From Sumerlaeia bacterium (GTDB lineage Bacteria; Sumerlaeota; Sumerlaeia; SLMS01; JAHLLQ01), in contig JAVJSW010000060.1 in NCBI GenBank assembly GCA_040219255.1, positions 224,001 to 288,000 on the forward strand: a stretch of 64,000 nucleotides of DNA, read 5' to 3'. Position 1 is the first letter of the stretch; every line of letters starts with the position of its first letter. Below are positions 1,494-55,485 of the stretch, piece after piece. The notes beneath the pieces are model-generated. The model was not told the DNA's origin. It did no database searches and saw nothing but the letters and a program-made list of their open reading frames with translations. The translations under genes were made by a program, and so were the position numbers.

Positions 1494-3659
1494 ATGCGCC
1501 GTCTTGCCCTTCCCCTTTGCTTCACAACGACCCTGGCCGCCACCGCCTTCGGGCAATCCTTCCTCAACGGGATCGAACTCGAGGCCCAGCCCGCCGTCGT
1601 CTGGACCTCCGCGTTGGCCCAGACTCCCCTCGCAGAGGACGTCGTCCTCGCGGTGATTTCCCAGTCCGGCCGCTCCGCCAAAGCCCGCGCCGCCCTCGAA
1701 CGCCAGGGATTCCGGGTGCTGGCGGCTCTGCCCCGCGACGGATATCTGGTGGCGGTCGACCGGCCGGATGCCGCCAGCGCGGCGCTGGTGGCAGCGGCCG
1801 ACCCGGCCTTTCGCGCGATGACAGTCGCGCCGGAATGGAAGATCGCCCCGGACTTCGCCTCCGTCCTCGCTTCGGCGCCCCCCGGCGAGGACATCGGTGT
1901 GGCTGTGTTCACCTCCCGCCCCGGTCTGGAAGCCGAACTCGCGGCCGTGGCCGCGGGGCACGGCGCGTCGCTGACCTCGCGCTCCGAGTCGGGCAAAGGC
2001 CGCGCCGGAATCCGCGTCCCGGCCCAGAACCTGCCCGCGCTCCTCACCGCTCTCGCGGACCTGCCGGCCGTCTATAACATCCAGCCAGCCGGCGGAGCCC
2101 GCCTGCTCAACGACAGCGCTTCGGAAATCCTCCAGAGCGGAAGCCCCACCGGCGGCCGCTCCATCGCCGCCCAGGGTCTTCAAGGCACGGATCAAGTCAT
2201 CGCGATCCTCGATTCCGGACTCGACTGGGATAGCTGCTTCTTCCGCGAGAGCGACGACTCCGCCCCGCCCACCGTCTCCGGCACCGGCATCGGTTCGCCC
2301 GATTCATCGCGCCGCAAAGTCATCGTCTACGATTTCCTCTTCAGCGGCGATTTCGCCGGCGGCAACGGCGACTTCGACAACAACGGCCATGGCACCTACG
2401 TCGCCGGCAACGCCGCCGGGTCCCAGATCACCAGCCCCACCGGCGACGCCTCCCTCAATGGCATCGCGCCCCTCGCCCAACTCGTCATCCAGGATGGCGG
2501 CTATACCACGGATAACAACTGCTCGGACATGGCGGGGCTCGGCTGTCCCCTGATCGACATCACGCCCATCCTGGATCAGGCCGTGGCCCAGGGCGCCCAC
2601 CTGCACAACGACTCCTGGGGCGATCGGGAAAACTTCCTGCCCAACAACACCTACACCGCCACCTGCGTCGATATGGACGATGCCACATGGCGCAATCCGG
2701 GGTTTCTGATTTTCTGCGCGGCGGGCAACAGCGGCCCCGCCGACAACACCGTCGGCAGCCCCAGCACCGCCAAGAACGTCCTCTCCATCGCCGCCGGCCA
2801 GAACCAAAACTCTGTCTTCAATAACGACCCGGAAAGCATCACCAGTTTCTCCAGCCGGGGATACGCCGCCGACGGGCGCTTCAAACCCGACCTGGTAGCG
2901 CCGGGCCAGACCGTGTCCGCCTTCAGCGATGGCAATGTCACGTCGAATAACTGCAATATCCTCAACCCGCAAGGCACCAGCATGGCCAGCCCGCTGGCCG
3001 CGGGGGCGGGGGCTCTCGTCCGCGAGTACTTCACCGATGGTTTCTATCCCACCGGGGCCGCCCTCCCCGGCGATGCCTTCGTGCCATCGGCGGCGCTGAT
3101 GAAGGCCGTTCTGATCAATGGCGCCGTGGATATGACCGGCGTCACCGGCCCCGTGCCCAACCGGGCCGAAGGCTGGGGCCGCATTCATCTGGACAACAGC
3201 CTCCACTTCACCGGAGACGACCGCACCATGCTCGTGGTGGATGAGGCGGACATCTTCGATTCGTCCTCCAACGCGCCGCGCCAATACACCTTCTCCGCGG
3301 GCGGCAACGCCGCCGCCGGGCAACTCAAGGTGACGCTGGTCTATACCGACGCGCCCGCCGATCCGCTGGCGTCCGTGTCGCTCGTCAACGATTTGAACCT
3401 CACCGTTACCGATGGCACCGACACCTGGCTCGGCAACAACTTCGATTCGGTGTCCGGCGAGAGCGTCACCGGAGGCGCCGCCGACGCCCTCAACAACGTC
3501 GAGCAGGTCACCCTGCCCGCCAGCACCACCGGCACCTTCACCGTCAGCGTCACCCCCGCCGTCATCGATGTCGTCGATCAGGGCTTCGCCCTGGTCATTG
3601 CCGGCGACGTGTCGAACTTGCAGGTGACCTCTGTGGGGGATTGGCGCCGGGCGGAGTAA
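1494..3659 (+). CDS. Secreted S8 subtilase (KP-43-like) with Trp-containing C-terminal tail
   Basis: Signal peptide; triad motifs ILDSG, NGHGT, GTSMASP; AAGNSG; KPDLVAPG; ends SVGDWRRAE. Confidence 0.92.
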   Translation: MRRLALPLCFTTTLAATAFGQSFLNGIELEAQPAVVWTSALAQTPLAEDVVLAVISQSGRSAKARAALERQGFRVLAALPRDGYLVAVDRPDAASAALVAAADPAFRAMTVAPEWKIAPDFASVLASAPPGEDIGVAVFTSRPGLEAELAAVAAGHGASLTSRSESGKGRAGIRVPAQNLPALLTALADLPAVYNIQPAGGARLLNDSASEILQSGSPTGGRSIAAQGLQGTDQVIAILDSGLDWDSCFFRESDDSAPPTVSGTGIGSPDSSRRKVIVYDFLFSGDFAGGNGDFDNNGHGTYVAGNAAGSQITSPTGDASLNGIAPLAQLVIQDGGYTTDNNCSDMAGLGCPLIDITPILDQAVAQGAHLHNDSWGDRENFLPNNTYTATCVDMDDATWRNPGFLIFCAAGNSGPADNTVGSPSTAKNVLSIAAGQNQNSVFNNDPESITSFSSRGYAADGRFKPDLVAPGQTVSAFSDGNVTSNNCNILNPQGTSMASPLAAGAGALVREYFTDGFYPTGAALPGDAFVPSAALMKAVLINGAVDMTGVTGPVPNRAEGWGRIHLDNSLHFTGDDRTMLVVDEADIFDSSSNAPRQYTFSAGGNAAAGQLKVTLVYTDAPADPLASVSLVNDLNLTVTDGTDTWLGNNFDSVSGESVTGGAADALNNVEQVTLPASTTGTFTVSVTPAVIDVVDQGFALVIAGDVSNLQVTSVGDWRRAE

Positions 3660-3674
3660 GCTCGCCGGAACTTC

Positions 3675-5903
3675 TTACGGCTCAGTCATCCACGCGTCGC
3701 GCATGTCGGCCACGGTGGTCTTGAGACAGCCCTGGATTTCGAAGGTCTCTTTCGCCGTCACGCCGATCTGAAGCGCCCGTACGCCCTTCTGCTCGCAAGC
3801 CGCGAGGAGTGACGGAACGCTCTGTTCGCTGCACGTGATCACAACGCGGCTCGGCTCTTCGCTGAGCAGCGACACATGGGCGCTGGGTTCGTCGAAGGGC
3901 AATTGCACCCGGCAACCTATTTCGTGCCCGCGCCCGCGCAGGGCGGCGTCCTTGGTGCAGAGCGCCATTTCCGCCAGCGCCATCAGGAGTCCGCCTTCGC
4001 TGATGTCGAGCGCCGCGTCGGCGAGGCCTTCGCCGATCAGATCGAGCAGCAAGGCCTGCAATTTCAGTTCGAAATCCATGTCGATTTTCAGTCCCGGACC
4101 GGGCAGTTCACCGGTGCGATCCCGCAGAATGCGGCTACCCCCACAATGCGTCGCCGCCGGGCCGAGCAGCAGGATCACATCGCCGGGGCGCGTGAAATGG
4201 CTGAATTTGAGGTGCTTGCCGCCACCCTCCACCACGCCCACCATACCGATCACCGGGGTGGGGAAGACGGCGGTGCGGGGCGATTCGTTGTAGAGCGACA
4301 CGTTGCCGCCGGTCACTGGAGTCCCAAAGGCCCGGCAGGCTTCGCCGAGACCCTTCACCGACTCGGCCAGCTGCCACGCGCCGGCGCCCTTGCGGGGGCT
4401 GCCGAAGTTCAAGTTGTTCGTCACCGCCAGGGGCCGCGCGCCGCAGCACACCAGGTTCCGCGCCGCCTCGGCCACCACGCACTTGGTGCCTTCGTAGGGA
4501 TCGAGGTGGCACCACAGGCCATTGCCATCCACCGTCGCCGCCAGGAGGCCTTCGTCCCAGCCCCGCACCCGCATCACCGCCGCCGTCAGGCCCGGGCCCA
4601 CGATGGTGCTGGTGCCGACGTGGTGGTCGTACTGCTCCCAGATCCAGGACTTGCGCGCGAAGTTCGGGTGGGCCAGGGTGGTCTTCAAAACCTCGTTGTA
4701 GTCGCCGCAGGAGGCCTCCGCCAGCGCCACGCCGTCCTTCGTGGCGGGATAGGCGGGCCTTGGCTCGACCGGTTCTGGCGGCGGAACGTCGGAGCAAATC
4801 GACGCCAGCGGCACATCGCAAACCACGTTGGTTTCGCGCTCCACGACAAAGCGCCCGGTGTCGGTCGTCTGGCCACAGACGATGGCTTCCAGGTCCCACT
4901 TCTTAAGGATGTCCGTGACCTGGGGCAGGTCCTCTTCCTTCACCACCGCCAGCATGCGCTCCTGGCTTTCGGAGAGCAGCATCTCGTAGGCGCTCAGGTT
5001 GGCGGCGCGCTGGGGGATGAAATCCAGGTCCATGCGCAGGCCAAGGCCCGCCTTGTCGGCCATTTCCGTGCTGCTGCACGTCAGCCCCGCGGCGCCCATA
5101 TCCTGCAGCGCCACGATGGCTCCTGAGGCGATCAGTTCGAGAGTCGCCTCCAGAATTTTTTTCTCCATGTAGGGGTCGCCGACCTGCACGCTGCTGCGCT
5201 GCTCGGCGGTTTCCTCGGTCAGTTCCGTGCTGGCGAAGGTGGCGCCGTGGACGCCGTCGCGGCCGGTGGCGTTGCCGTAATAGACCAGCATGTCGCCCGC
5301 GCCCTTGGCTTTGGCGGTCATGATTTCTTCATGCCGCGCCACGCCCACGCACATCACGTTCACCAGGCAATTGTCCGTGTAAGCGGGATCGACGCTGAAT
5401 TCGCCGCCAACGGTCGGCACGCCGACGCAGTTGCCGTAATCGGCGATGCCGTTGACGACGCCTTTGGCCAGGTGCCGGTTGCGGCCTTCGGTCATGGGGC
5501 CGAAGCGCAATGCGTCAAACAGCGCGATGGGACGGGCGCCCATGGCGAAGATGTCGCGCAGGATGCCGCCCACGCCGGTCGCGGCGCCCTGATAGGGTTC
5601 CACGGCGCTCGGGTGGTTGTGGCTTTCGATCTTGAAGATACAGGCCCATCCGCCGCCAATGTCGATGGCACCCGCGTTCTCGCCGGGCCCGTGGAGCACC
5701 CGTTCGCCCCTCGTCGGCAGCGTCATCAGCAGCGGCCGCGAATGCTTGTAGGAGCAGTGCTCGCTCCACATCACGCTGAAGACGCCCAATTCCGTCAGGT
5801 TCGGTTCGCGGCCGAGACGCTGTTTGAGCGTCTCGTACTCGGACGGGGTGAAACCGTGCTGGGCGATCAGCTCGGGAGTCATGGGGGGAGACGGCTCGGA
5901 CAT
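3675..5903 (-). CDS. purL: Phosphoribosylformylglycinamidine synthase subunit PurL
   Basis: [46 protein letters not shown]; start chosen at ATG 5903 (5882 also possible). Confidence 0.97.
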
Positions 5904-6054
5904 GCGAGGAGGCCTTTCCGGGGGCAAACTTTCGCGCGCACCTCAGCATGGACGATGCGGCGGGACAAGCGCGGAAGGCAGGGGCGCCGGAGGGACTTTT
6001 CGTTCACCACGGAGAGGGGGGCGCCGGGAAGGGTGGCTGGCGGATCTCGCCGGG

Positions 6055-6234
6055 TCAGACCCAGTCTTTGCGCCGCTCCGGCTTCTTCTTTAGAAGTGCC
6101 GTCGCCGCGCAATCGCCACAGCCACAGTTGCTCTTGCCCGTGGCCTTGAGCGTCTTCCATGCGCGCCACACCAGGAAGGCGGCGGCGGCGGAAACGATCA
6201 GGATGACGAGAATCGTTTGGATCATGGTGGCCAT
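6055..6234 (-). CDS. FeoB-associated Cys-rich small membrane protein
   Basis: One N-terminal TM helix then CGCGDC; lies downstream of feoB. Confidence 0.75.
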   Translation of the reverse strand: MATMIQTILVILIVSAAAAFLVWRAWKTLKATGKSNCGCGDCAATALLKKKPERRKDWV

Positions 6235-6374
6235 TTCTGTGTAGCAGGGGCGTCCCGCTCGTGTCCGGCGGCGATTCTGGAGGAGAAGCAACTCTTGTAC
6301 TCGGCCGCCCAGGGCCGCCCGATTTCCTCGAGTGTCAGGCGAAGGCGAGGGCTGGCCGGGACGGCCGCGTTACC

Positions 6375-8612
6375 CTACATGAACAGCATGCCCACCTGAT
6401 ACGTCACCAGGGCGGCAAAGTAGGCCAGCACCGTCATATACGTAAACGTGAAGATGGGCCAGCGCCAGGAATTGGTCTCGCGGCGGATGATGGCCAGGGT
6501 CGCCGCGCATTGGGCACAGAGGGCGAAGAAGACCATCAGCGACAACGCCACCGGCAGATTGAAGATCAAGTTGCCCTGAGGATCTTTGGCGGTCCGCAGC
6601 TTCTCGCGCAGATCCGGGTTGTCCTCGGCCGCGTCGCCGCCGACGTCGTAGATGATGCCGAGGGTTGCGACGACGACTTCGCGGGCGGGGAAGCTGGCGA
6701 CGACCGCCATGGCGATGCGCCAGTCCCAGCCGATGGGCTTCACGATGGGTTCGATGGCGTGGCCCATGCGGCCCAGGAACGACTGACGAAGGAGCGCGCC
6801 CTCCACCGCGCTGTCGCGGCGGGCAAGGGTTTCCTCCAGGGTCGCTTGCGCCTCCGCATCGCCGGATTGCGCGGCGGCTTCGGCCTGGGCGATTTCGGTG
6901 GCATAGGCTGCTTCCGTCTCCGTCGCGACGCTCTCGGGCCGAGGGTAATAGGTCAGCGCCCAGACCACCACCGACACCGCGAAGATGACCGTGCCGGCGC
7001 GCCAGAGGAACGCCTGGCCGCGCTCTAAGACGCGGTGGATCACGGTGCGCCATTGAGGCATTTTGTAGGACGGAAGCTCCAGAATGAAGGAGGGCGTCTT
7101 GCCCTTAAGGAGCGTGCGCTTGAGCAGCATCGCCACCGGCACGGCAAAGGCGAATCCGACCAGATACATGCAGAAGAGGACCGTGCCTTGCAGCCCCAGC
7201 ACGCCGGGAACCAGCGTGCGCTCCGGGATGAACGCGCCGATCAGGAGCACGTACACTGGCAGGCGGGCGGAGCAGCTCATCAGCGGCGCCACCAGGATAG
7301 TCGTCAGCCGGTCGCGCCGGTCCTCGATCGTGCGGGTCGCCATGATACCGGGGATGGCGCAGGCGAAGGACGAGAGCATCGGGATGAAGCTGCGTCCCGA
7401 GAGGCCGCAACGGCTCAGGAGACGATCCATCAGGAACGCCGCCCGCGACATGTAACCGCAGTCCTCGAGCAGCGCGATGAACGCGAAGAGGATCAAAATC
7501 TGAGGCAGGAAAATCACCACGCCGCCGACGCCGGCGATTACGCCGTCCACGATCAGACTGCGCAGCGGGCCCTCTCCCATGGCGGCCGTCACCACGTCGC
7601 CGAGCGCTCCGAAGACCGCGTCGATGGCGTCCATCAAGGGCGCCGACCAGGAGTAAATCGCCTGGAACACGATCAGCATCAGGACCGCGAACACCAGCGT
7701 GCCCCAGACCCGGTGGATCAGGATGCGGTCGATTTTATCGGAAAGCGAATCTTTGGACTCCTCTGGCCGGGAAACCACATCGGTCAGCAGGCCGCGGATG
7801 TGGCCGTAGCGCATGCGGGCTTCCACGGTGCGGATGCGGATGCCCTGGTCCGAGAGGCGTTGCCGTGCTTCCTTCAGATGGGTACGGACGGGCTCGCCCG
7901 CGGCGTCGGCGAGGCGTTCCTCGGCGGCACCGTCCTGGTCCAGCAGGGCGCGCTGCAAGAGCACCGGCTCGGCCGCGAGGGCGTTCTGGTCCGCATCGCG
8001 GAGAACCGCCGCCAGAGCATCGATTTCGCGCTCGAATTCCGGAGGAAAGAGATGGTCCGTGGCGGGTGGAGCGGGCGGCGACTGGCCCCGCAGCAGCGTC
8101 GCCACCGCGTCCACGCCTTTGCCCTTCGACGCCGATGTCGGCAGCACCGGTACACCGAGACGCTCGGCGAGCTTCTCCCCGTCCACGGTGATGCCGGCCT
8201 CCGCCGCCGCGTCCACCATGTTCAGCACAATCACCGTCGGCAGGCCGATTTCCATAACCTGGGTGGCGAGGAAGAGGTTCCGTTCGAGATTCGCGGCATC
8301 CACCACCACGGCCAGCAGGTCCGGTTTGGCTTCGACGCTGTGGATGCCGGTGAGGACCTCGACGGCGATGAGTTCGTCCGGCGAGTGGGCGGAAAGGCTG
8401 TAGGTGCCGGGGAGGTCGAGGATTTGGACGGCGCCGTTCGAGCCTTTGAGCGCGCCGGTGCGCGTTTCCACGGTGACGCCGGGGTAGTTGCCGACGCGGG
8501 CGCGAAAGCCGGTGAGGGCGTTGAAGAGTGTCGTCTTGCCGGTGTTCGGGTTGCCGATCAGGGCGACGCGGAAGGTTTTCTTTTCGGAAGGCGTGGGCGT
8601 GAGGGCAGTCAT
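6375..8612 (-). CDS. feoB: Ferrous iron transporter FeoB
   Basis: GNPNTGKT, NYPGVTVE, DLPGTYS, NMVD GTPase motifs; membrane domain with PLMSCSARLP, FILELPSY. Confidence 0.97.
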   Translation of the reverse strand: MTALTPTPSEKKTFRVALIGNPNTGKTTLFNALTGFRARVGNYPGVTVETRTGALKGSNGAVQILDLPGTYSLSAHSPDELIAVEVLTGIHSVEAKPDLLAVVVDAANLERNLFLATQVMEIGLPTVIVLNMVDAAAEAGITVDGEKLAERLGVPVLPTSASKGKGVDAVATLLRGQSPPAPPATDHLFPPEFEREIDALAAVLRDADQNALAAEPVLLQRALLDQDGAAEERLADAAGEPVRTHLKEARQRLSDQGIRIRTVEARMRYGHIRGLLTDVVSRPEESKDSLSDKIDRILIHRVWGTLVFAVLMLIVFQAIYSWSAPLMDAIDAVFGALGDVVTAAMGEGPLRSLIVDGVIAGVGGVVIFLPQILILFAFIALLEDCGYMSRAAFLMDRLLSRCGLSGRSFIPMLSSFACAIPGIMATRTIEDRRDRLTTILVAPLMSCSARLPVYVLLIGAFIPERTLVPGVLGLQGTVLFCMYLVGFAFAVPVAMLLKRTLLKGKTPSFILELPSYKMPQWRTVIHRVLERGQAFLWRAGTVIFAVSVVVWALTYYPRPESVATETEAAYATEIAQAEAAAQSGDAEAQATLEETLARRDSAVEGALLRQSFLGRMGHAIEPIVKPIGWDWRIAMAVVASFPAREVVVATLGIIYDVGGDAAEDNPDLREKLRTAKDPQGNLIFNLPVALSLMVFFALCAQCAATLAIIRRETNSWRWPIFTFTYMTVLAYFAALVTYQVGMLFM

Positions 8613-8684
8613 AGTGGGGCGGAGAGTCCGGAGCAGCCAGCGTCCGAGCCTCGGAGCCCAAGGCCTGGACTGGCGAAAGGGGGT

Positions 8685-8924
8685 TTAGACTTGGGGGGTG
8701 ATGCGGATCAGGCGGGCGTGGGCGCGGCGGACGGAAAGGAAGTAACCGCGCACCTCGACCTCCATCGGGTCGCCAATGGGCGCCAGACGTACGACGCGTA
8801 TCGGTTCGTCTTCCAGCAGACCCATCTCGGCGAGGCGCTGCACCGTCGGGTCGTCTTCATTGGTAAAGCCAGCGATCGTGCCGCTTTGGCCCGGTTGCAA
8901 ATCGGCCAGGGTTGTCTCGGGCAT
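8685..8924 (-). CDS. feoA: FeoA family protein
   Basis: MPETTLADLQPG...RLAEMGL...APIGDP; TGATG overlap with upstream feoA. Confidence 0.9.
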   Translation of the reverse strand: MPETTLADLQPGQSGTIAGFTNEDDPTVQRLAEMGLLEDEPIRVVRLAPIGDPMEVEVRGYFLSVRRAHARLIRITPQV

Positions 8925-16180: not shown

Positions 16181-17794
16181 ATGAAATTTCCCCCAATAAC
16201 TCAATTTGCAATGAAGACGTCGATTTTAGGCGTGGTCTTCGCCGCACTCCCGTTCCTGGCCATCCACACCCCCGCCCAGGACACACTTTTCCTGGATTTC
16301 GACGACTATCTGGGCGGCCGAATCATCGATGATGAATATGTGCTCAGCCACGGCGTCACCTTCAGCGTGATCAACCCGAACAACGGCGGGGATCCAGACC
16401 TCGGTGTCCTTTATCCCTCCAACGTGGAACCGCCCGCTGGTCTCAGCACCGGCCTCTTCGACCCCGATTTGCAGGGACCGCCGACGAGTTATGGCAACTG
16501 GGCCACGGGCAACGCGGCGACGGAGAGCGCCGGCAACGTCCTGATTTCCCAGGAAACGAACCCCGAGGCGGCGGAGATCGCCGCGGGACAGCTCGGCAAC
16601 AAGAGCAATCCCCCGGACATCCCGGGTTTGACCGATGACCAGGAAACATACCCCGACGATCAAGGCAGCGGCTCCACCATCGTCGCCGTCCTCGACACAC
16701 CGGCCCGCGCCGTGCGGTTCAACTGGGTGGACCTGGACAACGGCGCCAGTGCTCCCGCCAAGCTGACGATCCGCTTCGTCGATACGCTGACCGGCGGCAG
16801 CCCTTCCATCGACATCCCGGTGCTGGCCTTTGTGACGAACAACGGAAACCCGTTTTACGATTCGACGGTGGCGTGGGCGGATGGATCGTTCGACCGGCTC
16901 GAGGAGATGGATCTCGACGAGATCAATTTCTACGAGGCCAACTACGGGCCGAACGCCACGACCCTGACCCGCTTCAACCGGGTCGAATGGATTGTCATTA
17001 CCTCCGGTGGCCTCGGCGATTTCATCGAGTTCGAGCCCATCGCCCAGGGTTGCTTCGGCGACATCGTCTTTAATGACACGGACAGCGACGGCGTCTTCGA
17101 GCCCAACAAGCCCAACGGCACCGACGAGACCGGCATCCCCGGCGTCGTCATGAACCTGTACCAGGATAACAACAACGACGGTGTCTTCGACGGAGGCGAT
17201 ACCCTTTATCGCCAGACGGAGACCGACGCGAATGGCTTCTACGAATTCATCGGACTGCCCGCCGGCAATTACGTCGTGGTGGTGGACGAAACCGGCGTCC
17301 TCTCCGGAATGACCAGCACGGGCCCCAACATTGACGAGGATGGCGAAACGCTCTCGACGGACGAGTGCTACGCCGCCGGCGACTTCGGTTACACGTCCAG
17401 CATCCTGGCGGTCGACCTCGTGTCCTTCGAGGCCCACCCCGGCGGCGCGGGCGAACCGATCGTCATCGCTTGGGAGACGGAGGCGGAAATCGACAACCTG
17501 GGCTTCAACCTCTACCGGGCGATTCCGTCGCCGATGCGCCGCGGGCCCGGAAGCGGCGGTGGCTGGAGCGTTGGGCCGAAGCTCAACGACGACCTGATTC
17601 CGGCCGATCCGACGGCTCTGCTTGGCGGCGCCGAGTATGCCTTCACGGACTTGGCCGGCTACGATCCCGCGGCGGCGCGCGGCTATTTCCTGGAAGACGT
17701 GGACGCTTCGGGCCGGACGACCCTCCATGGCCCGGCGATGATTCTGCCGTCGAAGCGCGATTCCGGGGTGGAGAGCTGGCGCATGGCCGAGTAA
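16181..17794 (+). CDS. Secreted protein with SdrD B-like domain, FN3-like C-terminal domain and Trp tail
   Basis: RBS-like AGGAG; signal peptide; GDIVFNDTDSDG...GIPGV...TDANGFYEF; LAVDLVSFEA...WETEAEIDNLGFNLYR; ends SGVESWRMAE. Confidence 0.85.
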   Translation: MKFPPITQFAMKTSILGVVFAALPFLAIHTPAQDTLFLDFDDYLGGRIIDDEYVLSHGVTFSVINPNNGGDPDLGVLYPSNVEPPAGLSTGLFDPDLQGPPTSYGNWATGNAATESAGNVLISQETNPEAAEIAAGQLGNKSNPPDIPGLTDDQETYPDDQGSGSTIVAVLDTPARAVRFNWVDLDNGASAPAKLTIRFVDTLTGGSPSIDIPVLAFVTNNGNPFYDSTVAWADGSFDRLEEMDLDEINFYEANYGPNATTLTRFNRVEWIVITSGGLGDFIEFEPIAQGCFGDIVFNDTDSDGVFEPNKPNGTDETGIPGVVMNLYQDNNNDGVFDGGDTLYRQTETDANGFYEFIGLPAGNYVVVVDETGVLSGMTSTGPNIDEDGETLSTDECYAAGDFGYTSSILAVDLVSFEAHPGGAGEPIVIAWETEAEIDNLGFNLYRAIPSPMRRGPGSGGGWSVGPKLNDDLIPADPTALLGGAEYAFTDLAGYDPAAARGYFLEDVDASGRTTLHGPAMILPSKRDSGVESWRMAE

Positions 17795-37000: not shown

Positions 37001-37459
37001 TACGACGCCGGTCTGACGCTCTGGCCCGGCCCAGAGGGCGGCGACGTCGCCGAACAGGCCGATGGGCTCCGGTGGTGGCGTGGGGCGGTCTCGGTCGACG
37101 AGTCGCTCCTCGCGGTCGCCCGCAACGCGCTCGGCTTTTCGCTGCACCGATTGGACGAGGACGGCCAGGTGACCCAATCGCGCCGCCATTCGGGTTTGAC
37201 CCACTGGGCCGAGAACATGGCCTGGATCGGCCCGCGTCAGCTGGCGGTCGCCGACACCGAAGGCCACGTTCTGTTCTTCGACGTCGGCGAGGACCTGGCG
37301 GTCGAGCCGGCGGGGCGGTGGAATCGGGGCACTTTCGACGCCGCCCTGCTCGCCCTAGCGAGCGACGGCGCCACGCGTCTTCTCCTGGGCTACGACGATG
37401 GCCGGGTGATCCTGCTCAACGTGCAGGACTTGGCGCCGGCGGGCTGGATGCTCTATTGA
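34001..37459 (+). CDS. Large secreted multidomain protein (CBM-like, GH-like barrel, beta-propeller) with Trp tail
   Basis: Signal peptide; GGDFE CBM-like start; YVVDEP, WFLPQAF, ALAHGAKG barrel-like motifs; propeller-like repeats; ends PAGWMLY. Confidence 0.7.
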   Translation: MKTPVFRPFQQTGRLVAHLLTIAFTASCAMAQPPGESPWWVQHDLGPMLESRPAGEKNPQSEKGERPLVVLPEIENPALELLNGEGFPLGWSAIGAPEILKHPDGRVTLRANNLNGLRQQLDRPVPWQHLGFAFRAKGELGGEVATVASFFPGREEDILFRNSSGVVEQEFKTLYGTIPILPGGDTMEIQLLGILPRYWVEIDEVALFGENFLGGDFEDEFTTGGLVPWVLEGGARLTTDTVRGGERALYLPPGASATATVAAMEGWEQYVEEFHVLFDPRKSLPIGIDRVFLDSGGAEISIDQEIFAITYEPIWKRVFRTPPKAPPAGARAARITFKNLSDVRVHIDDMVRGFMTVTPDPFVLDHPEPDAAVRFIASWPGFLKDDFRIRLSDSMGTTVASFTSPVLSQRASVAEWIPPADLEPGSYQVNIATLDSATTSISSYITDTELIARPPYGDPVTLDPPGGFPIGAWTYLVRTENTEDAIRPILEASQADGYTYALVFANTEQWPLVASICEDIGHPFVAGDFALLRRIRAQQTLAPFSFAEWEALIAETIAPALASPACIGHYVVDEPFTRESWRRAHAAIQMATVIPNGKGTLMAMAGGTVDDGIYDVIEPPIHFSPVYRHQIGQMDDAEQLRAVSNLVEAEVARATARGVPYWFLPQAFGDPELFRLPTPEASRAYVGVALAHGAKGLVPFLWQAIGGLEGTRTLNLDPTPIHAAWNQEIARVTALSDLLLGVAGHARVPTASGNFLATTATDAAGSTVLFLVNYETRAAQEIVLVPQDNALRLIDAETGVELPSTSGNTVVVLDPGHWRAFLLRGGGSHEFQEISSRIIVPADDSLALPVLLDRTFPGLTIWDADFTADGVLWAAAAETAIVSGSREGQSASQIPSAGQARRIAHIDNGAAYVADWLRGVYRFEHAEQELLPSFLNQTGLAYDIAAGGDFIAISMAEWGVRRLAEVEGETFLASDGVIFPDNLAFSLHGPLDGGEILFSDYDAGLTLWPGPEGGDVAEQADGLRWWRGAVSVDESLLAVARNALGFSLHRLDEDGQVTQSRRHSGLTHWAENMAWIGPRQLAVADTEGHVLFFDVGEDLAVEPAGRWNRGTFDAALLALASDGATRLLLGYDDGRVILLNVQDLAPAGWMLY

Positions 37460-46556: not shown

Positions 46557-46578
46557 CTTCCCAAAGGTCCCAACACCA

Positions 46579-47889: not shown

Positions 47890-47943
47890 TCGCCAGCCCG
47901 CGCGCGAAACTTGCGGTGGAATTCTCTGGAAAGGAGAACTCCT

Positions 47944-48636: not shown

Positions 48637-49624
48637 CGAATTCGGCGGGCTTTCCGCGCGGAGAATAGCCGCGCTCGGGCTGGGTCTCAAAGCCGAGCCA
48701 CTTGTAGAAAAACACCCCGCCCAACTCCGGCCGGCCATCCCAGGCCGAGATAAACGCCTGATACGCCCGGGCTTGCTCGCGCAGGTCGGGCGGATTCTTC
48801 AGCGTGTAATCCCACGGATACACCGCGCCACCATCGAGCGACGGGTAGCCCACCTCCGTCAGCAGCAGCGGCAGGTGGTCGAGGGCCTGCTCGCGCCGCC
48901 ACTCCAGGATGTCGCTCCGGAAGATGCGCCAAGCGCTGTCCAGCGCCGCCTGATCGGCATTCTGGTCCTTCGTCAATTCGTAATAGGACGATAGTCCGAT
49001 GGCGTCCAACCGATCCCACCATAATTCTGGCCCGAAGAGGTGATCCCAGTTACAGGAGTAAGTCAGCGAGGTGGCGGCGCATTCCGCGCGCACGGCGGAA
49101 ATCGTTTCTTCCCATTGCTCAGCGTAGATTTCCAGGGAGGAGAACTCGCTGCCGATGCTAACCCAATCACAGTTTTCCTCATTCGCGATCCGAGCATAGT
49201 GAAGTATCCACGATCGATAATCTTCGAACCAGGCATCCAGGTCCGCCGGCGCCATATTGCCCCGCCATTCGTCGGGCCCGGGCGATTCGAGGAGCACGAT
49301 GGGGAACAGCAGCGTCGCCATGCCGCGCGCGTGGCATTGGCGGATCGTGCGGCGCAGGGCGTTGTCCGGTATGGTGCGCCCGGCCTTGCGGTAGATTTCG
49401 GTCGAGGTGCCGTTCTCCTGAAGCAGCACCACTGTCAGGTTCACCGCGTTGACGCCCAGGGCCCCCAACTCGTCGATGGCGAACCCGTAATCGAAATCCG
49501 GGTCCGCGGCGTAGAGGGGCAGCACCGCGCCGCGCAGCTCGGGCGGCTGGGCGGGGAGCGGCGCGCTCTGAGTGAAAACCCACATAAGGGCCAGAAAGGC
49601 CATTATTCCCCGGCGCGCTCTCAT
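48566..49624 (-). CDS. Glycoside hydrolase family 113-like secreted protein
   Basis: WRG, WFEDY, IGSE, TYSCNWD, LDAIGLSSYY, LTEVGY; ATGA overlap with HAD gene. Confidence 0.75.
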   Translation of the reverse strand: MRARRGIMAFLALMWVFTQSAPLPAQPPELRGAVLPLYAADPDFDYGFAIDELGALGVNAVNLTVVLLQENGTSTEIYRKAGRTIPDNALRRTIRQCHARGMATLLFPIVLLESPGPDEWRGNMAPADLDAWFEDYRSWILHYARIANEENCDWVSIGSEFSSLEIYAEQWEETISAVRAECAATSLTYSCNWDHLFGPELWWDRLDAIGLSSYYELTKDQNADQAALDSAWRIFRSDILEWRREQALDHLPLLLTEVGYPSLDGGAVYPWDYTLKNPPDLREQARAYQAFISAWDGRPELGGVFFYKWLGFETQPERGYSPRGKPAEFVIRAWLAPEDAASPPESPSLPGR

Positions 49625-50289
49625 CCCCGGGCGCCCGCCGAGAGTTCCTCGATCAGCGAGTCGAGGGTTCGCTCGGCCATGGACTCGAGAACGAAATCGG
49701 CCATGGAAAAATCCAGCCGCCGCGTGATGCCGTTGGGGATGATGGCCACGTGCATGCCCGCCGCCTTGGCCGCCACGAGGCCGTTGCGCGAGTCCTCGAA
49801 GACCAGGCAATTCCGCGGCGCGACGTTCAGGCGTTCCGCCGCCAGGAAAAACAGCGCTGGGTCCGGCTTGGTCTTTTCCACCTCGTCGCCGGTGGCGAAT
49901 TGCTCGAAATGCGCGATCAGGCCAAGGCGCTCCAGGTGCCCCGTGACCCATTCGCGGCCGCTGCTGCTGGCGACGCCCCGGCGCAGGCCCCGGGCCACCA
50001 CGGAGGCGATCATCTCAGGTACGCCGGGCCGGGGCGGCGAGGCCTCGATGCGTGGCAGGTAGCGGGCCTTCACCTCAGCCACGATGGCGTCGCGGTCGAT
50101 GGGGGCGCCGGTTTTTTCTTCCATGTAGCGATAGACGTCGAAGTGGTCCGACGACCCGACGATGTTGGCCCAGACATCGATGGGCAGTTCGGCGCCGCGA
50201 TCGCGGAAAAGTTCGGCGAAAATCTCGTAGGTCGGCGTCTCCGTGTCCAGAATCAGCCCATCGAAATCGAAAATCACAGCTTCAATCAT
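49621..50289 (-). CDS. HAD family phosphatase
   Basis: FDFDGLILDTE, ASSS, KPDP, FEDS.NG. Confidence 0.93.
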   Translation of the reverse strand: MIEAVIFDFDGLILDTETPTYEIFAELFRDRGAELPIDVWANIVGSSDHFDVYRYMEEKTGAPIDRDAIVAEVKARYLPRIEASPPRPGVPEMIASVVARGLRRGVASSSGREWVTGHLERLGLIAHFEQFATGDEVEKTKPDPALFFLAAERLNVAPRNCLVFEDSRNGLVAAKAAGMHVAIIPNGITRRLDFSMADFVLESMAERTLDSLIEELSAGARG

Positions 50290-50331
50290 CAGGTCCCAGT
50301 CCTCGGCGAAGTCGCATCAGGCCAGAGCAAA

Positions 50332-52419
<2,088 letters not shown>

Positions 52420-52446
52420 TCAAGACGTATTGGCGGGGGAAATTAT

Positions 52447-52511
52447 GGCCACAGATGACGCGGATGGACACCGATCAAAAAAACATCTGCGCTCTCTGCG
52501 TCATCTGAGGC
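52447..52511. repeat. Compact paired inverted repeat (type A)
   Basis: GGCCACAGATGACGCGGATGGACACCGAT-AAAA-rich spacer-CATCTGCGCTCTCTGCGTCATCTGAGGC. Confidence 0.7.
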
Positions 52512-52517
52512 AGGAAA

Positions 52518-53339
52518 TCAAATCCCATCGCTCATGTAGGTGTGGATGCCGCACTCGGTTTTCTGGCTGCCGCTCCATCGGCCGGCGCGTTCGTCCTGGC
52601 CATCGGCGACGGGTTTGGTGCAGGGCGCGCAGCCGATGCTCTTGTAGCCTTCGAGGAACAGCGGGTGGACGGGGACATCGTGTTCGTCGATGTACTTCCA
52701 CAGGTCGCGCTTCGACCAGTTGGCGAAGGGATTGATCTTCACCAGGGGCTCGCGGCCGGGGCGTTCGCTGACTTCCAGGATTTTGGTGCGTTGGCGGATT
52801 TCGCTATGGTCGCTGCGGCGGATGCTGGTCACATAGGCCGACCGGCCGGACAGCGCGCGGCGCAGCGGCTCGACCTTGTTCAGGAAGCAGCACAAATCCG
52901 TGCCGACATGGGCGTGGCGGCGGGCTTCCTGGGGCACGTCGATCCCGTCCAGGTTCTCGCGCTTGTTCAGGTCGTCCGGGAACTTGGCCAGGAAGGCCTC
53001 GCGGCCGCCCTGATAGCCCCAGGCTTCCACCTTCAGATTGTAGAGATCGCGGATATGATCGCGGAATCGGATGGTGTCTTCAAAGTGATAACCGGTTTCC
53101 AGAAAGATCACCGGGACGCGGTTGTCCACCTCGGACAGCATCCGCAGCAGCGCCCCCGACGACGCGCCGAAGGACGACGTGGCGGCGAAGCGCTCGGGGC
53201 CGTAAGTCCTCGCGGCCCAGGCAATAATGTCCCGAGCGGTCCAGGACTCCATCTCCTCGGACAACGCGCGCAGCTCCTCCACCGTGGGCAGGGAAGAGAC
53301 GGGGGGCTCGAGTTGAGCGAAAGCGGCCGTGGCGGTCAT
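52518..53339 (-). CDS. cysH: (Phospho)adenylyl-sulfate reductase, Fe-S (APS reductase) type
   Basis: TSSFG, ETGYHF, CC..NKVEPL, GYKSIGCAPCT, ERAGRW, ECGIH. Confidence 0.92.
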   Translation of the reverse strand: MTATAAFAQLEPPVSSLPTVEELRALSEEMESWTARDIIAWAARTYGPERFAATSSFGASSGALLRMLSEVDNRVPVIFLETGYHFEDTIRFRDHIRDLYNLKVEAWGYQGGREAFLAKFPDDLNKRENLDGIDVPQEARRHAHVGTDLCCFLNKVEPLRRALSGRSAYVTSIRRSDHSEIRQRTKILEVSERPGREPLVKINPFANWSKRDLWKYIDEHDVPVHPLFLEGYKSIGCAPCTKPVADGQDERAGRWSGSQKTECGIHTYMSDGI

Positions 53340-53360
53340 GGGGTGAACCTTTCCGAGGAA

Positions 53361-53440
53361 ATACTCCTACTTGCGGGTAGGAATTAGAGGCTAATCCCAT
53401 GCCAACGCAAGGCGATTTCCTACTTGAAGGGTAGGAAATC
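53361..53440. promoter_or_regulatory. Tandem palindromic operator candidates upstream of cysH
   Basis: TCCTAC-N6-GTAGGA (53365-53382) and GATTTCCTAC-N7-GTAGGAAATC (53414-53440). Confidence 0.65.
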
Positions 53441-53457
53441 CCGTAAGCGGAGGATTC

Positions 53458-55485
53458 TCAGCGCACAGACCAACCGGTCGGCGTGTCCACGGCTAGAGCG
53501 AATTCGCCCAGTTCGGTCAGGTCCGCAGCCGTGACGCGGTTACGGGCGTGGTCCCATGTGACGCCGGCAAGCAATTCGTCCCATGGGGCGTCGGGGCTGG
53601 GCCGGTGCATCAGGCGCAGGCCGCTCTCGCCGAGGCTCTGCACGTCGTCACCGATGTAGTCGAACTGCACCGTGGCGGTGTCCCATGGGGTTCCTTGGGC
53701 CGAAAGGGTCCACCGCGTGCGGGCGGTCTGGCTTGGGTTCAAACCAGTGAGGCCGCCGGTGCCGGTGGTCATCTCCACGATGACAAGGCGCGAGGAAGCG
53801 GGTTCGCCCTTGGCGGCGGACTGGAATCCGGCGGAGACGCGGGCCTGTGGCGGCAAGTGCCCGTCTGGCCCGACGGAGCCAATGGGGTAGAGGTGGCTTC
53901 GATCGGCCGGCAAAATCCGCCGGTAAGTCACCGTGGCCGGGCGGTCTTCGATCAGGCGGCCGGGATAAAGGACCCAGCCGGCGCTGTAGAGTTCCTGAAC
54001 ACTCATGCTGAGCGGGCTGACGGCGAGATCGTAGTAACCGTCGCCATCCAGGTCGCCCGCCAGGTCCACCGTCTCGCCAAACTTGGCGCGGGCCACGGCG
54101 CCTTCGATTTGCCAGCCCGTGGCAGGTGTGAACTCCGACAGGCGCAGGGTTTCGGTGCCGCTCTGGCCATAAACGATGTAAACGCTGCCGGTGTCGATCA
54201 GGGCCCCGAGGCCGGTGTTGTGCGCGCCCAGGGCCAAGTCCATGTGGCCATCGCGGTTCAGGTCGCCAAGGCCACAGCCATCGATCCCCAGGTTATGGTG
54301 AGCGGCGGCGGCATGGATTCGATAGCCCGGCTGAGCGACACCGATGTCTTCCAGTCGGAAGCTTTGCCACTGTGAAGTCCCAAAGACGACGTAAGCTATC
54401 CCGGATGCCGGATTTCCGTCGGAGGGATCGATTCCGGCGCCCAGTAAGATGTCGTGAAATCCATCACCGTTCACGTCGCCGAGCCCACTGGCCTCTGTGA
54501 TGCCGACGAATCCCCCGGTCTTGCGGATCGTGACTCGGCCCGGGCCGGGTTCGGTCAGCGAGAAAGGGGCGAAGTCCTCGCGGCCAAAGATCAGAACCAA
54601 CGAGTCCTCGGCGGTTCCGGTTCCATCATCCGGGCGGACGCAGAAGTCCCCCAGCCCGTCGCCATTGAGATCGCCCAGGCCAGTGAAGCCCGAAGTCACG
54701 GCGTCGGAGCTAACCTTGACCGCTGTCATCTCGATCGCCCGGCCGTTCGCCACCATGGCGGGCAAGGGCTCCGGAGAGCGGCCACGTTGGCCAAAGATCA
54801 GATAGGCGGAGTCATCCACCGTGGTGGAGCCGGTTCCGGACGCGGCGATGAAATCCGGAATCCCGTCGCCGTTCACATCGCCCAGGCCTGCCAACTGCCT
54901 GCTGAAGAAATCGCCCTCGGCCAGGCCGTCGATGTCGTAGCCGCGGGGCGGAAAGATTTCAAGGTCCGTCAGGTCGCTTAACTCGGCGCCACCAAACAGG
55001 ACGAAAGCCCGGCCCTTGCGGTTTTCATAGCGCTCGGAACTCAGACCGAAATCCGCGAACCCATCACCGTCCAGATCGCCCAGCGCCGTGATCGAGCGCC
55101 CCGTGTCCCGAGGGACGAGGTTCTCGTGAATCCGAAAGCCCAGGCCATTCTGGGACAACGTCTCCAGGTTCAGGAGAGGAGACGTTTCGCGCGCGCCGAA
55201 GACGACAAAGTTCTCGGTCCATTCCCGCGATGCCCCGCCTACCGACCCGATCAGCAAGTCCCCCAGTCCATCGCCGTTCACATCCCCGATGCCGGCGTTG
55301 TTGGGGCCGGTCAAGGCATAGCCTTTTGGTTCCTTGTGGAACACAAAACCGAAATCGCGGGCCTCGAGTTCCGTGATGGAAACTCGGTTGGACTGCGCGG
55401 CCAGCGGCATCGCGCCCAGGCAGCCGAGCAGCAAACTGGCGAGTTGGAGGGTGCGGCGGCTGGCGGGGGAGGGCGAATCGGACAT
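53458..55485 (-). CDS. Secreted FG-GAP/integrin-alpha-like propeller protein with Trp tail
   Basis: Seven GD(V/L)(N/D)xDGxxD repeats; signal peptide; ends TPTGWSVR. Confidence 0.88.
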   Translation of the reverse strand: MSDSPSPASRRTLQLASLLLGCLGAMPLAAQSNRVSITELEARDFGFVFHKEPKGYALTGPNNAGIGDVNGDGLGDLLIGSVGGASREWTENFVVFGARETSPLLNLETLSQNGLGFRIHENLVPRDTGRSITALGDLDGDGFADFGLSSERYENRKGRAFVLFGGAELSDLTDLEIFPPRGYDIDGLAEGDFFSRQLAGLGDVNGDGIPDFIAASGTGSTTVDDSAYLIFGQRGRSPEPLPAMVANGRAIEMTAVKVSSDAVTSGFTGLGDLNGDGLGDFCVRPDDGTGTAEDSLVLIFGREDFAPFSLTEPGPGRVTIRKTGGFVGITEASGLGDVNGDGFHDILLGAGIDPSDGNPASGIAYVVFGTSQWQSFRLEDIGVAQPGYRIHAAAAHHNLGIDGCGLGDLNRDGHMDLALGAHNTGLGALIDTGSVYIVYGQSGTETLRLSEFTPATGWQIEGAVARAKFGETVDLAGDLDGDGYYDLAVSPLSMSVQELYSAGWVLYPGRLIEDRPATVTYRRILPADRSHLYPIGSVGPDGHLPPQARVSAGFQSAAKGEPASSRLVIVEMTTGTGGLTGLNPSQTARTRWTLSAQGTPWDTATVQFDYIGDDVQSLGESGLRLMHRPSPDAPWDELLAGVTWDHARNRVTAADLTELGEFALAVDTPTGWSVR

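Follow-up and report, generated by a model that had tools for sequence, protein, structure and literature searches.

A short tryptophan-containing C-terminal tail on unrelated secreted proteins of Sumerlaeota looks like an undescribed sorting tag

Among the C-terminal sorting signals of bacteria, the closest described counterparts of the sequence reported here are the T9SS C-terminal domain (Por_Secre_tail, PF18962/TIGR04183), a folded domain of 70 to 100 aa, and the tripartite signals LPXTG, PEP-CTERM, GlyGly-CTERM, and MYXO-CTERM, which go with sortase, exosortase, rhombosortase, and myxosortase, respectively (background taken in part from 10.1101/2023.06.07.544157 and PMC11980579). In the window, a stretch of 64,000 nucleotides from a Sumerlaeia bacterium, a preliminary description had picked out four nonhomologous secreted proteins that end in a short tail with a Trp 4 to 5 residues from the stop, and had proposed this tail as a novel sorting signal. 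Here, we compare these proteins and their tails (Table 1) with the rest of the genome, with the phylum, and with the known systems.

Translation of the window gave exactly the endings that had been quoted for the four proteins, and all four N termini were signal-peptide-like as judged by a crude home-made heuristic. The domain identities proposed for three of the proteins (S8, SdrD_B, and FG-GAP) were supported by Pfam, while the 1152-aa protein P0003, previously called GH-like, drew nothing from it. Named homologues of P0001 were headed by one labeled 'candidate division BRC1'. The last 353 aa of P0003 found no homologue in a search of 5.8 billion proteins, and the tail of P0004 was covered by none of the homologues of that protein, whose database copy takes a later Met as its start and has 675 aa. 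Judged by their sequences, P0001, P0002, and P0003 are classed as clear tail members (PSSM scores of 5.1 to 5.3) and P0004 as a weak one, possibly of type B, as its ending PTGWSVR does not pass the type-A PSSM and is matched only by the loosened pattern [GKTS]W[LIMVATS][LIMVA][KRNH]$. The ending of P0003 recurs in the same genome as GEWMLY, after an FnIII-like module in g0013. The AWMTEP ending of PurL, given earlier as an example of a chance match, did not match the PSSM and is indeed due to chance.

Table 1. Coordinates of the four proteins, their tails, and the FnIII-like module in the window
Feature	Position	Strand	Support
Secreted S8 subtilase P0001, 721 aa, type-A tail	1494..3659	+	Pfam PF00082, E=4e-39
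Type-A Trp tail SVGDWRRAE + stop (P0001)	3630..3659	+	PSSM 5.1
Secreted SdrD_B-domain protein P0002, 537 aa	16181..17794	+	Pfam PF17210; signal-peptide-like N terminus
FnIII-like C-terminal module, no family name, about residues 405-525 of P0002	17393..17755	+	Seven-strand beta-sandwich
Type-A Trp tail SGVESWRMAE + stop (P0002)	17762..17794	+	PSSM 5.3
Secreted protein P0003, 1152 aa	34001..37459	+	No Pfam match
Trp tail PAGWMLY + stop (P0003), main motif W-x-hydrophobic-Y	37436..37459	+	PSSM 5.2
Secreted FG-GAP repeat protein P0004	53458..55551	-	Pfam PF01839 and PF13517
Possible type-B tail PTGWSVR + stop (P0004), weak member	53458..53481	-	Loosened pattern only

The four endings had been divided into two sub-motifs, and this part of the proposal needed revision: they are better described by one main motif, V-x-[DN]-W-x-hydrophobic-[FY], in which PAGWMLY is included, and by a rarer form, G-W-hydrophobic-hydrophobic-[KR]-stop. 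The tail consensus reads [ST]-[SA]-V-x-[DN]-W-x-[LM]-[YF], followed by 0 to 2 residues, often Glu, and the stop codon. In 63 type-A tails the W was found at -4 in 26, at -5 in 30, at -6 in 6, and at -7 in 1; between the aromatic residue and the stop stood a variable number of residues (0 to 3), which were often acidic, and the conserved part extended 6 to 8 residues upstream ([ST]-[SA]-V). The heuristic detected a signal peptide in 49 of the 63 type-A bearers, and more were seen by eye. When the 250 aa before the tail were compared, 77 bearers fell into 63 BLAST clusters, in agreement with the view that the tailed proteins are unrelated, and their Pfam content was very diverse (amylase, GH18, GH31, subtilase, FG-GAP, and cadherin-like proteins). 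Their median length was 642 aa, versus 373 aa in other proteins with a signal peptide. In three bearers, the tail comes immediately after an NCBIfam 'choice-of-anchor' D or Z domain, a name that denotes families in which the C-terminal anchor differs among the members. Of the 63 matches, at least two (a 2-hydroxyacid dehydrogenase and a TolB homologue) are probably due to chance.

As a whole, the pattern was confirmed to exceed chance. The whole genome was represented by 3645 genes from a home-made caller, and signal peptides were assigned by the crude heuristic. The predicted enrichment was found, since a W at -4 occurred in 50 of 839 proteins with a signal peptide (SP+) versus 33 of 2023 without one (SP-) (OR 3.8, p=4e-9), and a W at -5 in 42/839 versus 30/2023 (OR 3.5, p=2.5e-7), while W was flat at the remaining 13 of the positions -1 to -15 (smallest p = 0.04, at -6). 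The pattern W.[LIMVA][FY] ended 16 SP+ proteins at the exact C terminus versus 0.30 predicted from its internal rate, and GW[LIMV][LIMVA][KR] ended 6 versus 0.025 expected, with 12 occurrences anywhere in SP+ proteins. A PSSM trained on 19 tails from other genomes only, and applied to proteins without the FnIII-like module, matched 40/833 SP+ and 7/2021 SP- proteins (OR 14.5, p=1e-15; 1.27 expected from the internal rate). At least 3 of 14 'SP-' matches have a visible signal peptide that the heuristic missed, and the contrast is therefore, if anything, understated. A 400-kb sample of G060, a genome from another family, gave 11/74 SP+ versus 1/153 SP- (OR 26.5, p=2e-5), and in a 400-kb sample of G001, 5 of 286 genes matched, 4 of them SP+.

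Across the phylum, it is the protein sequence of the tail that is conserved. Two DNA patterns, V-x-[DN]-W-x-x-[FY]-stop and a version longer by one codon, were counted against a backward-pattern control, and the hand sums over 75 Sumerlaeota genomes were 596 versus 102 for the first and 320 versus 94 for the second. The tail pattern was clearly enriched in 10 of 18 families (343 versus 27 in family f7, for example) and weak in family f15 (23 versus 14), and in family f11 the dominant ending was V-R-[DN]-W-E-x-[YF]-E-stop (21 versus 0 in G042; 15 versus 0 in G031). It was not enriched in five genomes of other phyla (3 versus 7 in the control), and among named public contigs it was present at 7/10 Sumerlaeota loci and 0/68 other loci. 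The lineage specificity suggested at the outset held in this sample, the tail being found in Sumerlaeota, in most families, and not in the five genomes from other phyla; a description of such a tail was not found in the literature searched.

The tail is also independent of the domain that precedes it. As had been supposed, no existing model describes it: neither Pfam nor NCBIfam covered a tail in the four window proteins or in 59 and 56 further bearers, of which up to 450 C-terminal aa were scanned. In the AlphaFold model of P0001 (mean pLDDT 88), residues 712 to 721 had a pLDDT below 50 and no secondary structure, and the P0002 tail, with a pLDDT of about 50, formed a short low-confidence amphipathic helix outside the sandwich. 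Of 45 close homologues of the subtilase, 25 keep a W 3 to 7 residues from the end, after a variable stretch of 19 to 21 aa, and 6 are tail-less and end 5 to 8 aa past the last domain or strand. The homologues and the two confident models place the Trp outside each fold, so it is not a part of the domains themselves.

Could the tail be without function, a by-product of composition, an error in gene calling, or a DNA element that sits where genes end? Both the gene and the signal-peptide calls were home-made, and a few matches are probably chance; nevertheless, C termini are set by stop codons independently of start calls, the backward-pattern and shifted-stop controls were 5 to 10 times lower, and the effect recurs in independent genomes and in database proteins predicted by others. 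Codons vary as well (V as GTC in 21 tails and GTG in 16; Y/F as TAC in 21, TTC in 14, TAT in 9, and TTT in 2), as do the stops (TAA 28, TGA 22, TAG 13), and in the subtilase homologues the linkers before the tail vary while W and the aromatic residue stay. This variation in codons, stops, and linkers around a kept W and aromatic residue indicated that selection acts on the protein. A functionless tail is highly improbable and is already contradicted by the controls.

What the tail may stand in for was suggested by the widespread FnIII-like module that precedes it in P0002, which the preliminary description had overlooked and which a profile search did not detect in the other three window proteins. 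This module of about 115 aa is recognized by W..T..E...GF..R and R.Y.LED.D..G....HGP, both present in P0002, and it ends many unrelated proteins. It was modeled with a pLDDT above 90, with FnIII as the nearest solved fold (E=1e-3), and it matched 37110 cluster representatives at E<=1e-3 and no Pfam or NCBIfam family. In relatives, a tail of this kind comes after 19 of 23 terminal modules, and 84 of the best 150 module representatives end in it. Eight module proteins chosen for T9SS-like endings all had a terminal Por_Secre_tail (seven above the Pfam cutoff), and the copies from Anaerolineae terminate in a membrane helix and basic residues. On this comparison of sequences, the tail occupies the slot of known sorting signals, namely T9SS domains and membrane anchors in other phyla.

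We favor, with a probability of roughly 60%, the reading that the tail is a Sumerlaeota-specific short linear C-terminal tag by which some of the Sec-exported proteins are selected for a step after Sec, most probably to cross the outer membrane or to be retained there; it has the look of an address label, so far undescribed, for secretion or for attachment to the surface. The tagged proteins, mostly large enzymes and adhesin-like proteins, would be brought to the periplasm by the N-terminal signal peptide. Once folded, they would display V-x-[DN]-W-x-hydrophobic-[FY] on a flexible linker rich in Ser, Thr, Ala, and Pro, with no more than two or three residues between the motif and the free carboxyl end. 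The tail would be read in trans by a receptor, either as an extra beta-strand or as an amphipathic helix of one and a half turns, and this reading might replace the recognition given elsewhere by folded T9SS C-terminal domains or PEP-CTERM-type anchors. We infer that the tail directs sorting, and likewise the final location of the proteins, any cleavage, and the presence of a reader. The classical systems are missing (no exosortase in this genome; T9SS domains in 3/75 genomes), which counted for the sorting tag, while against it no receptor, protease, or channel was identified. The number of secretin genes runs opposite to tail density (2 to 4 in tail-rich f7, 7 to 13 in tail-free f13), and a pseudopilin-like family is present in 75/75 genomes, tail-free families included. 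Since no tail, T9SS domains, or exosortase were found in f13, secretion in the phylum does not require a tail, and the variable distance of 0 to 3 residues from the aromatic residue to the stop argues against a strictly carboxylate-dependent recognition.

Donor-strand docking is not an alternative to the sorting or tethering reading but one particular mechanism for it. As an orphan beta-strand, the tail would extend or complete the sheet of a partner, which would be either a pseudopilin-like protein or an Ig/FnIII-like module that is incomplete; in this way, many different enzymes would be plugged noncovalently onto one surface scaffold or pseudopilus. We regard this mechanism as tentative and rather unlikely. 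The tail, as [DE/N]-W-x-x-[FY]-E, is spaced like D-L-x-S-F-E in strand A of the FnIII-like module (residues 14 to 23), and 5/45 subtilase homologues have another short tail, P-V-E-L-x-x-F-x-V-[EQ]-stop, in which strand A seems to be repeated, although these resemblances comprise 3 to 4 positions, the AlphaFold model gives a low-confidence helix and not a strand, and no module without strand A was found in the genome, where the profile gave only two internal matches, both partial and weak. Both GspG-type pseudopilins that the genome encodes in full length (PF08334, E=7e-32 and 9e-30) end in [VI]-x-[SN]-W plus four residues, in the register of the tail. Pseudopilin-like genes adjoin tail genes in 4/41 cases in G000 versus 1.66 expected (p=0.08), in 2/7 in the G001 sample versus 0.25 expected (p=0.024; one pair overlaps by 4 bp), and in 1/2 in the G060 sample versus 0.11 expected (p=0.11). 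Each of these tests is weak alone, a regex-based count of 4/27 (p=0.02) weakened once the whole family was counted, and the family is equally present in tail-free families; this adjacency is a weak lead to the machinery.

The free C-terminal position bears on a further possibility, that the tail is bound by a PDZ protease of the periplasm or by a C-terminal processing system (DegS/DegP- or Prc/CtpA-like) and serves maturation, activation, or turnover instead of placement. PDZ domains of such proteases read free C termini with aromatic or hydrophobic ends, and the motif is confined to a few residues from the free C terminus and has an aromatic and hydrophobic end. However, the residues after the aromatic one are variable and often acidic, the conserved part, which reaches 6 to 8 residues upstream, is longer than a typical PDZ ligand, the tail replaces sorting domains in homologous architectures, and the proteins that bear it are large enzymes and adhesins of a surface type (median 642 versus 373 aa), and we consider this role unlikely. 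The composition of the tail could, in turn, suit a self-sufficient anchor that enters the outer-membrane interface, or binds a surface glycan or S-layer, without dedicated machinery. Trp and Tyr favor membrane interfaces, the P0002 model has its short amphipathic helix, and no machinery was found; yet three or four hydrophobic residues with acidic flanks are too little for stable anchoring, the crossing of the outer membrane is left unexplained, and the exact V, [DN], W, and [FY] with their spacing, kept phylum-wide, suggest a protein receptor. We hold self-anchoring to be quite improbable.

Set beside the known systems, the tail as a candidate sorting tag differs from LPxTG, PEP-CTERM, GlyGly-CTERM, and T9SS signals, as had been asserted, in having no helix, no basic tail, and a length of about 10 aa. 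Among C-terminal signals outside these groups, the beta-signal read by BAM is also a short C-terminal motif of diderm proteins exposed to the periplasm, with aromatic residues in or close to the final position; the tail bearers, in contrast, are soluble enzymes and repeat proteins, not beta-barrels, and often have 1 to 2 acidic residues after the aromatic one. None of 59 scanned bearers had a barrel domain, which rejected this identity, and the Omp85 proteins of the genome end otherwise (..RLRGGF and ..GFQFGL). Type I secretion substrates have no N-terminal Sec signal peptide, and a type I signal was rejected, as 49/63 type-A bearers have one by the heuristic.

The tripartite signals resemble the tail more closely, being short lineage-specific C-terminal motifs on many signal-peptide proteins and interchangeable, as the tail is, with other anchors on homologous proteins. 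They differ in that the tail has no membrane helix or basic cluster and the stop follows 0 to 3 residues past the aromatic one, and therefore an intramembrane or membrane-bound transpeptidase of these kinds cannot be its reader. An LPXTG signal was rejected, as none of the 77 tails has an LPXTG-like motif or a helix plus basic residues, and so was PEP-CTERM, on the lack of both helix and basic cluster and of an exosortase (PF09721) in this genome (92% complete); in the phylum, exosortase was found only in f15 (7/7 genomes), a family with a weak tail pattern, and, weakly, in 2/13 f7 genomes. A T9SS type A domain was likewise rejected, with no PF18962/TIGR04183 match in the four window proteins or in 59 and 56 further bearers; PF18962 occurs once each in 3/75 Sumerlaeota genomes, and SprA_N (PF14349) had no match in this genome, although the control genomes were equally silent. 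In its distribution, the tail is nonetheless like the T9SS C-terminal domain: both stand at the extreme C terminus of unrelated Sec-exported enzymes and adhesins of diderms, are restricted to a lineage, have dozens of bearers per genome, and follow the FnIII-like module, the T9SS domain doing so in other phyla, and where that signal is a folded domain, the Sumerlaeota tail consists of about 10 residues outside any fold.

The preliminary description had quoted short tails with a Trp near the C terminus for four proteins of the window, and translation returned the same proteins with the same ends. Pfam searches identified an S8 subtilase (P0001), an SdrD_B-domain protein (P0002) and an FG-GAP protein (P0004) among them, the fourth, of 1152 aa (P0003), gave no Pfam match, and NCBIfam held no sorting-signal model for any of the four. 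The contig belongs to an assembly of 5.35 Mb in 83 contigs, estimated to be 92% complete, and the closest named relatives of the window proteins come from 'candidate division BRC1' and 'Candidatus Sumerlaeota' MAGs. Homologue searches with P0004 and P0003 gave no sequence covering either tail. Among the tails listed in this analysis, the dominant consensus was [ST]-[SA]-V-x-[DN]-W-x-[LM]-[YF], followed by 0 to 2 residues (often E/D/Q) and the stop codon, and a rarer form read G-W-hydrophobic-hydrophobic-[KR]-stop.

The tail was then counted in the whole genome, using 3645 genes called with a home-made codon-bias caller and signal peptides assigned by a crude rule. In the comparison that the preliminary description had suggested, Trp was commoner at −4 in proteins with a signal peptide (50/839) than in those without (33/2023; p = 4 × 10−9), and likewise at −5 (42/839 versus 30/2023; p = 2.5 × 10−7). 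None of the remaining 13 positions between −1 and −15 showed Trp enrichment, the lowest p value being 0.04, at −6. At the exact C terminus, W.[LIMVA][FY] and similar short patterns exceeded the number predicted from their internal frequency by a factor of 50 to 100, and the G-W-h-h-[KR] form occurred 12 times anywhere in signal-peptide proteins, 6 of these C-terminally versus 0.025 expected. A position matrix was trained on 19 tails of other genomes and applied to proteins lacking the FnIII-like module that precedes the tail of P0002, because only nine proteins of this genome match that module over its full length. The matrix matched 40/833 proteins with a signal peptide versus 7/2021 without (odds ratio, 14.5; p = 1 × 10−15), with 1.27 matches expected from the internal rate. 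One tail-like end lies on a called 924-aa open reading frame of contig C14 without a signal peptide, and a pseudopilin-like profile match lies against it on the opposite strand, in a 756-aa open frame. One of these two conflicting calls is probably wrong, and the tail match counted there as lacking a signal peptide is therefore doubtful.

Iteration of the matrix yielded 63 bearers of the main tail, 49 of them with a signal peptide by the rule; of the remaining 14, at least 3 have a signal peptide that the rule overlooked. Chance is the probable origin of at least two of the 63 matches, on a 2-hydroxyacid dehydrogenase and on a TolB homologue. The second form added 14 further proteins, and the resulting 77 bearers, roughly 2% of the proteins of this genome, fell into 63 BLAST clusters when the 250 residues before the tail were compared. 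Pfam searches with up to 450 aa from the C-terminal end of 59 bearers found GH13 amylase, GH18, GH31, LTD, FG-GAP, DUF11, cadherin-like, He_PIG, Golvesin_C and DUF4832 domains, among others, several of which stop about 15 residues or less before the stop codon. A scan of 56 bearers against NCBIfam gave no sorting model, and the domains found directly before the tail were choice-of-anchor D (twice) and Z. Pfam and NCBIfam held no model of the tail; such a model would have counted against the reading of the preliminary description. Lipoboxes were no more or less frequent in bearers (5/61) than in the other signal-peptide proteins (74/778). Adjacent pairs of tail genes numbered 3, versus about 1.6 expected.

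The last 130 residues of P0002 were found again in terminal position in many unrelated proteins in a search of 40 relatives, raising the possibility that a shared domain accounts for the tail. This unnamed module lies at 17393-17755 of the window. In an AlphaFold model of it, residues 14 to 124 had pLDDT values above 90, and the nearest solved fold was FnIII, Foldseek against the PDB giving generic FnIII/Ig matches (best E = 1.2 × 10−3). In 19 of 23 terminal modules of the relatives, a variable linker of 5 to 12 residues was followed by V-x-[DE..]-W-x-x-[FY], and eight of the nine full-length module proteins of this genome, which has two further weak partial matches, bear the tail. Nine such proteins cannot account for 77 bearers, and a shared domain as the cause of the tail was therefore rejected.

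The module itself is widespread: its profile matched 37110 cluster representatives at E ≤ 1 × 10−3, and 84 of the best 150 carried the tail at their end. Eight representatives chosen for T9SS-like endings all had a terminal Por_Secre_tail, seven of them above the Pfam cut-off. The tail thus occupies the place that a sorting signal takes in such proteins. On named public contigs, the tail followed the module at 7/10 Sumerlaeota loci and at 0/68 other loci. Copies from other lineages on public contigs ended in ..[FY]LP[LI][IV].[RK]-stop (Chloroflexota), in ..TPR[LF][IL][YF]G[IM].K-stop (Thermodesulfobacteriota), in the basic ..ASRRSKKARR-stop (Brocadiales) or, for some Anaerolineae, in a membrane helix with RRK. 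Each lineage has its own short ending after the module, which suggests that lineage-specific mini-tags form a wider class; short terminal tags may therefore be a general, overlooked one.

That the Trp might instead belong to the fold of each preceding domain had been raised in the preliminary description, but structural models and homologues place it outside. The tail of the P0002 module was modeled at a pLDDT of about 50, and a model of the whole subtilase, built on a 46-row alignment, had a mean pLDDT of 88, with residues 712 to 721 below 50 and without secondary structure. When 45 close subtilase homologues were anchored on their conserved last strand, ..QGFALVI.GDV, 25 had a W 3 to 7 residues from the end, after 19 to 21 poorly conserved residues, 6 ended 5 to 8 residues past the anchor, and 5 had a different short tail, P-V-E-L-x-x-F-x-V-[EQ]. 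More distant homologues have PPC, PKD or Fn3 domains added. The P-V-E-L-x-x-F-x-V-[EQ] ending, whose sequence looks like that of strand one of the FnIII-like module standing by itself, was seen, followed by the stop codon or as close variants, in subtilase homologues of other lineages (P0158, P0160, P0163, P0181, P0187, P0190, P0223 and P0237). Codons and stop codons vary among the tails, and conservation is therefore at the protein level.

To describe the range of the tail, 400-kb samples of other Sumerlaeota genomes were passed through the same pipeline. The sample from another genus of the same family (G001) gave 5 matches in 286 genes, 4 of them with a signal peptide. In family f7, 12 matches in 296 genes (4%) were found in G060, distributed as 11/74 proteins with versus 1/153 without a signal peptide (p = 2 × 10−5), and 1 match in 308 genes in G036. 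A sample from f13 (G033) gave 0 matches in 250 genes. At the DNA level, V-x-[DN]-W-x-x-[FY]-stop occurred 596 times in 75 genomes of the phylum versus 102 for a backward-pattern control, and the pattern with one extra codon 320 versus 94 times (sums by hand), with the distribution over families summarized in the table below. The excess was clear in f1 to f5, f7, f11, f14, f16 and f17 and doubtful in f9, f12 and f15. Families also differ in the ending, which is [YF]-stop in f7 and [YF]-E-stop in f11. Five genomes of other phyla that have the FnIII-like module gave 3 versus 7 in the control. For the rarer form, G-W-h-h-[KR]-stop gave 131 versus 78 over the phylum (hand sums), an excess too weak for its range to be mapped.

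Occurrences of the main-tail DNA patterns (both together) and of the backward control in the families of the phylum
Family	Pattern	Control	Remark
f1	113	27	
f2	139	32	
f3	20	2	
f4	13	0	
f5	50	12	
f6	4	5	no excess
f7	343	27	
f8	2	2	no excess
f9	8	4	
f10	2	2	no excess
f11	42	11	all with extra Glu codon
f12	11	5	
f13	23	24	no excess
f14	38	9	
f15	23	14	
f16	53	10	
f17	28	7	another class
f18	4	3	no excess

These data strongly support the tail as a genuine C-terminal tag that exported proteins carry across the phylum and whose architecture is new. We consider it most likely a sorting or tethering signal, with a probability of roughly 0.6.

Secretins, Omp85 proteins and a pseudopilin-like family were examined as machinery reading the tail, and none was identified as such. 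This diderm-like genome has eight secretin-domain genes (on contigs C16, C11, C35, C49, C44, C1, C31 and C75) and encodes two Omp85 proteins. Genomes of the phylum have 2 to 14 secretin genes, the fewest being in tail-rich f7. Secretin expansion was rejected as a correlate, the counts across the phylum running opposite to tail density. The prepilin-type, pseudopilin-like family comprises proteins of about 200 to 260 aa with a near-identical N-terminal helix and a conserved YDPTNGTVSxGD[IV]xR near the C terminus. It has 41 members among the called genes of this genome, and its copy number in the 75 phylum genomes ranges from 14 to at least 42; because it is present in 75/75, it was rejected as a discriminating marker. 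Examples are given in the following table, together with two more prepilin-type genes at the right end of the window. Some members lie directly upstream of tail-bearing genes.

Coordinates of pseudopilin-like genes, of two further prepilin-type genes and of the conflicting open reading frames
Feature	Location	Strand	Remark
Pseudopilin-like gene	C37:238255-238854		example from L234-L253
Pseudopilin-like gene	C27:67305-68033		example from L234-L253
Pseudopilin-like gene	C43:36745-37338		example from L234-L253
Prepilin-type gene	window 62840-63625	+	N-terminal methylation-motif-like helix
Prepilin-type gene	window 63722-64000	+	N-terminal methylation-motif-like helix; runs off window
924-aa ORF with tail-like end	C14:20299-23073	−	
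Pseudopilin-like profile match	C14:21586-22236	+	

Tail genes adjoined pseudopilin-like genes in 4/41 cases in this genome versus 1.66 expected (p = 0.08), in 2/7 versus 0.25 in the G001 sample (p = 0.024; one pair, L181:1500-2237 and L181:2234-4798, overlaps by 4 bp) and in 1/2 versus 0.11 in the G060 sample (p = 0.11). This adjacency above expectation is a lead to candidate machinery. Besides the pseudopilin-like cluster, the biggest clusters among the neighbours of tail genes resemble ordinary large gene families, whose names we presume from their N-terminal sequences.

One explanation of how the tail might be read is strand donation or attachment to a pseudopilus. The two full-length GspG-type pseudopilins of this genome have C termini of the form [VI]-x-[SN]-W with four residues after the Trp; these are in register with the tail but fail the matrix. 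From its acidic residue on, the tail has the same spacing as strand A of the FnIII-like module, both resemblances involving few positions. A complex prediction with residues 55 to 245 of a G001 pseudopilin-like protein (21-row alignment) and the last 44 residues of its tail-bearing downstream neighbour scored 0.01 in a run without controls, and we count it neither for nor against this explanation. We regard the explanation as unlikely. Still more speculative, and quite improbable in our estimate, is its extension to a full pathway, in which the tail would be the address label of an undescribed Sumerlaeota display or secretion route. Cargo would dock by its tail, donated as a strand in imitation of the one at the C terminus of the major pseudopilin. 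The dock would be formed by members of the expanded pseudopilin-like family, and the docked cargo would be driven outward through a type-II-secretion-like pseudopilus or presented on it. If true, this would give secretin or pseudopilus machines their first targeting signal that is linear and can be transplanted.

As a candidate sorting or tethering signal, the tail is spread over most of a globally distributed phylum of uncultured, polymer-degrading bacteria in which T9SS domains are almost absent and exosortase is mostly lacking. It provides a simple sequence rule for predicting exported surface or extracellular enzymes of Sumerlaeota from metagenomes, is a small candidate tag for reporters, and raises the concrete question of the identity of its reader. 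The literature searched gave no description of it, and the terms 'C-terminal', 'sorting' and 'outer membrane' are absent from the main text of the main Sumerlaeota genomics paper (PMC8092238).

Membership of the tail among T9SS C-terminal domains, exosortase-type signals and OMP beta-signals was tested and rejected. T9SS domains occurred in 3/75 phylum genomes, one in each. Exosortase was not found in the 92% complete genome studied here; EpsH was present in 7/7 genomes of f15 (G044 to G050; E about 1 × 10−61 in six and 2 × 10−23 in the seventh), and outside f15 there were two weaker matches only, in 2/13 f7 genomes, which points to a lineage-restricted PEP-CTERM-type sorting inside Sumerlaeota. 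The Omp85 C termini of this genome, compared for the BAM/OMP beta-signal, are unlike the tail. C-terminal sorting signals such as LPXTG, PEP-CTERM and T9SS domains have reportedly each led to dedicated machinery and to surface-display tools. In contrast to these three, the Sumerlaeota tail is about ten residues long and has neither a membrane helix nor a folded domain.
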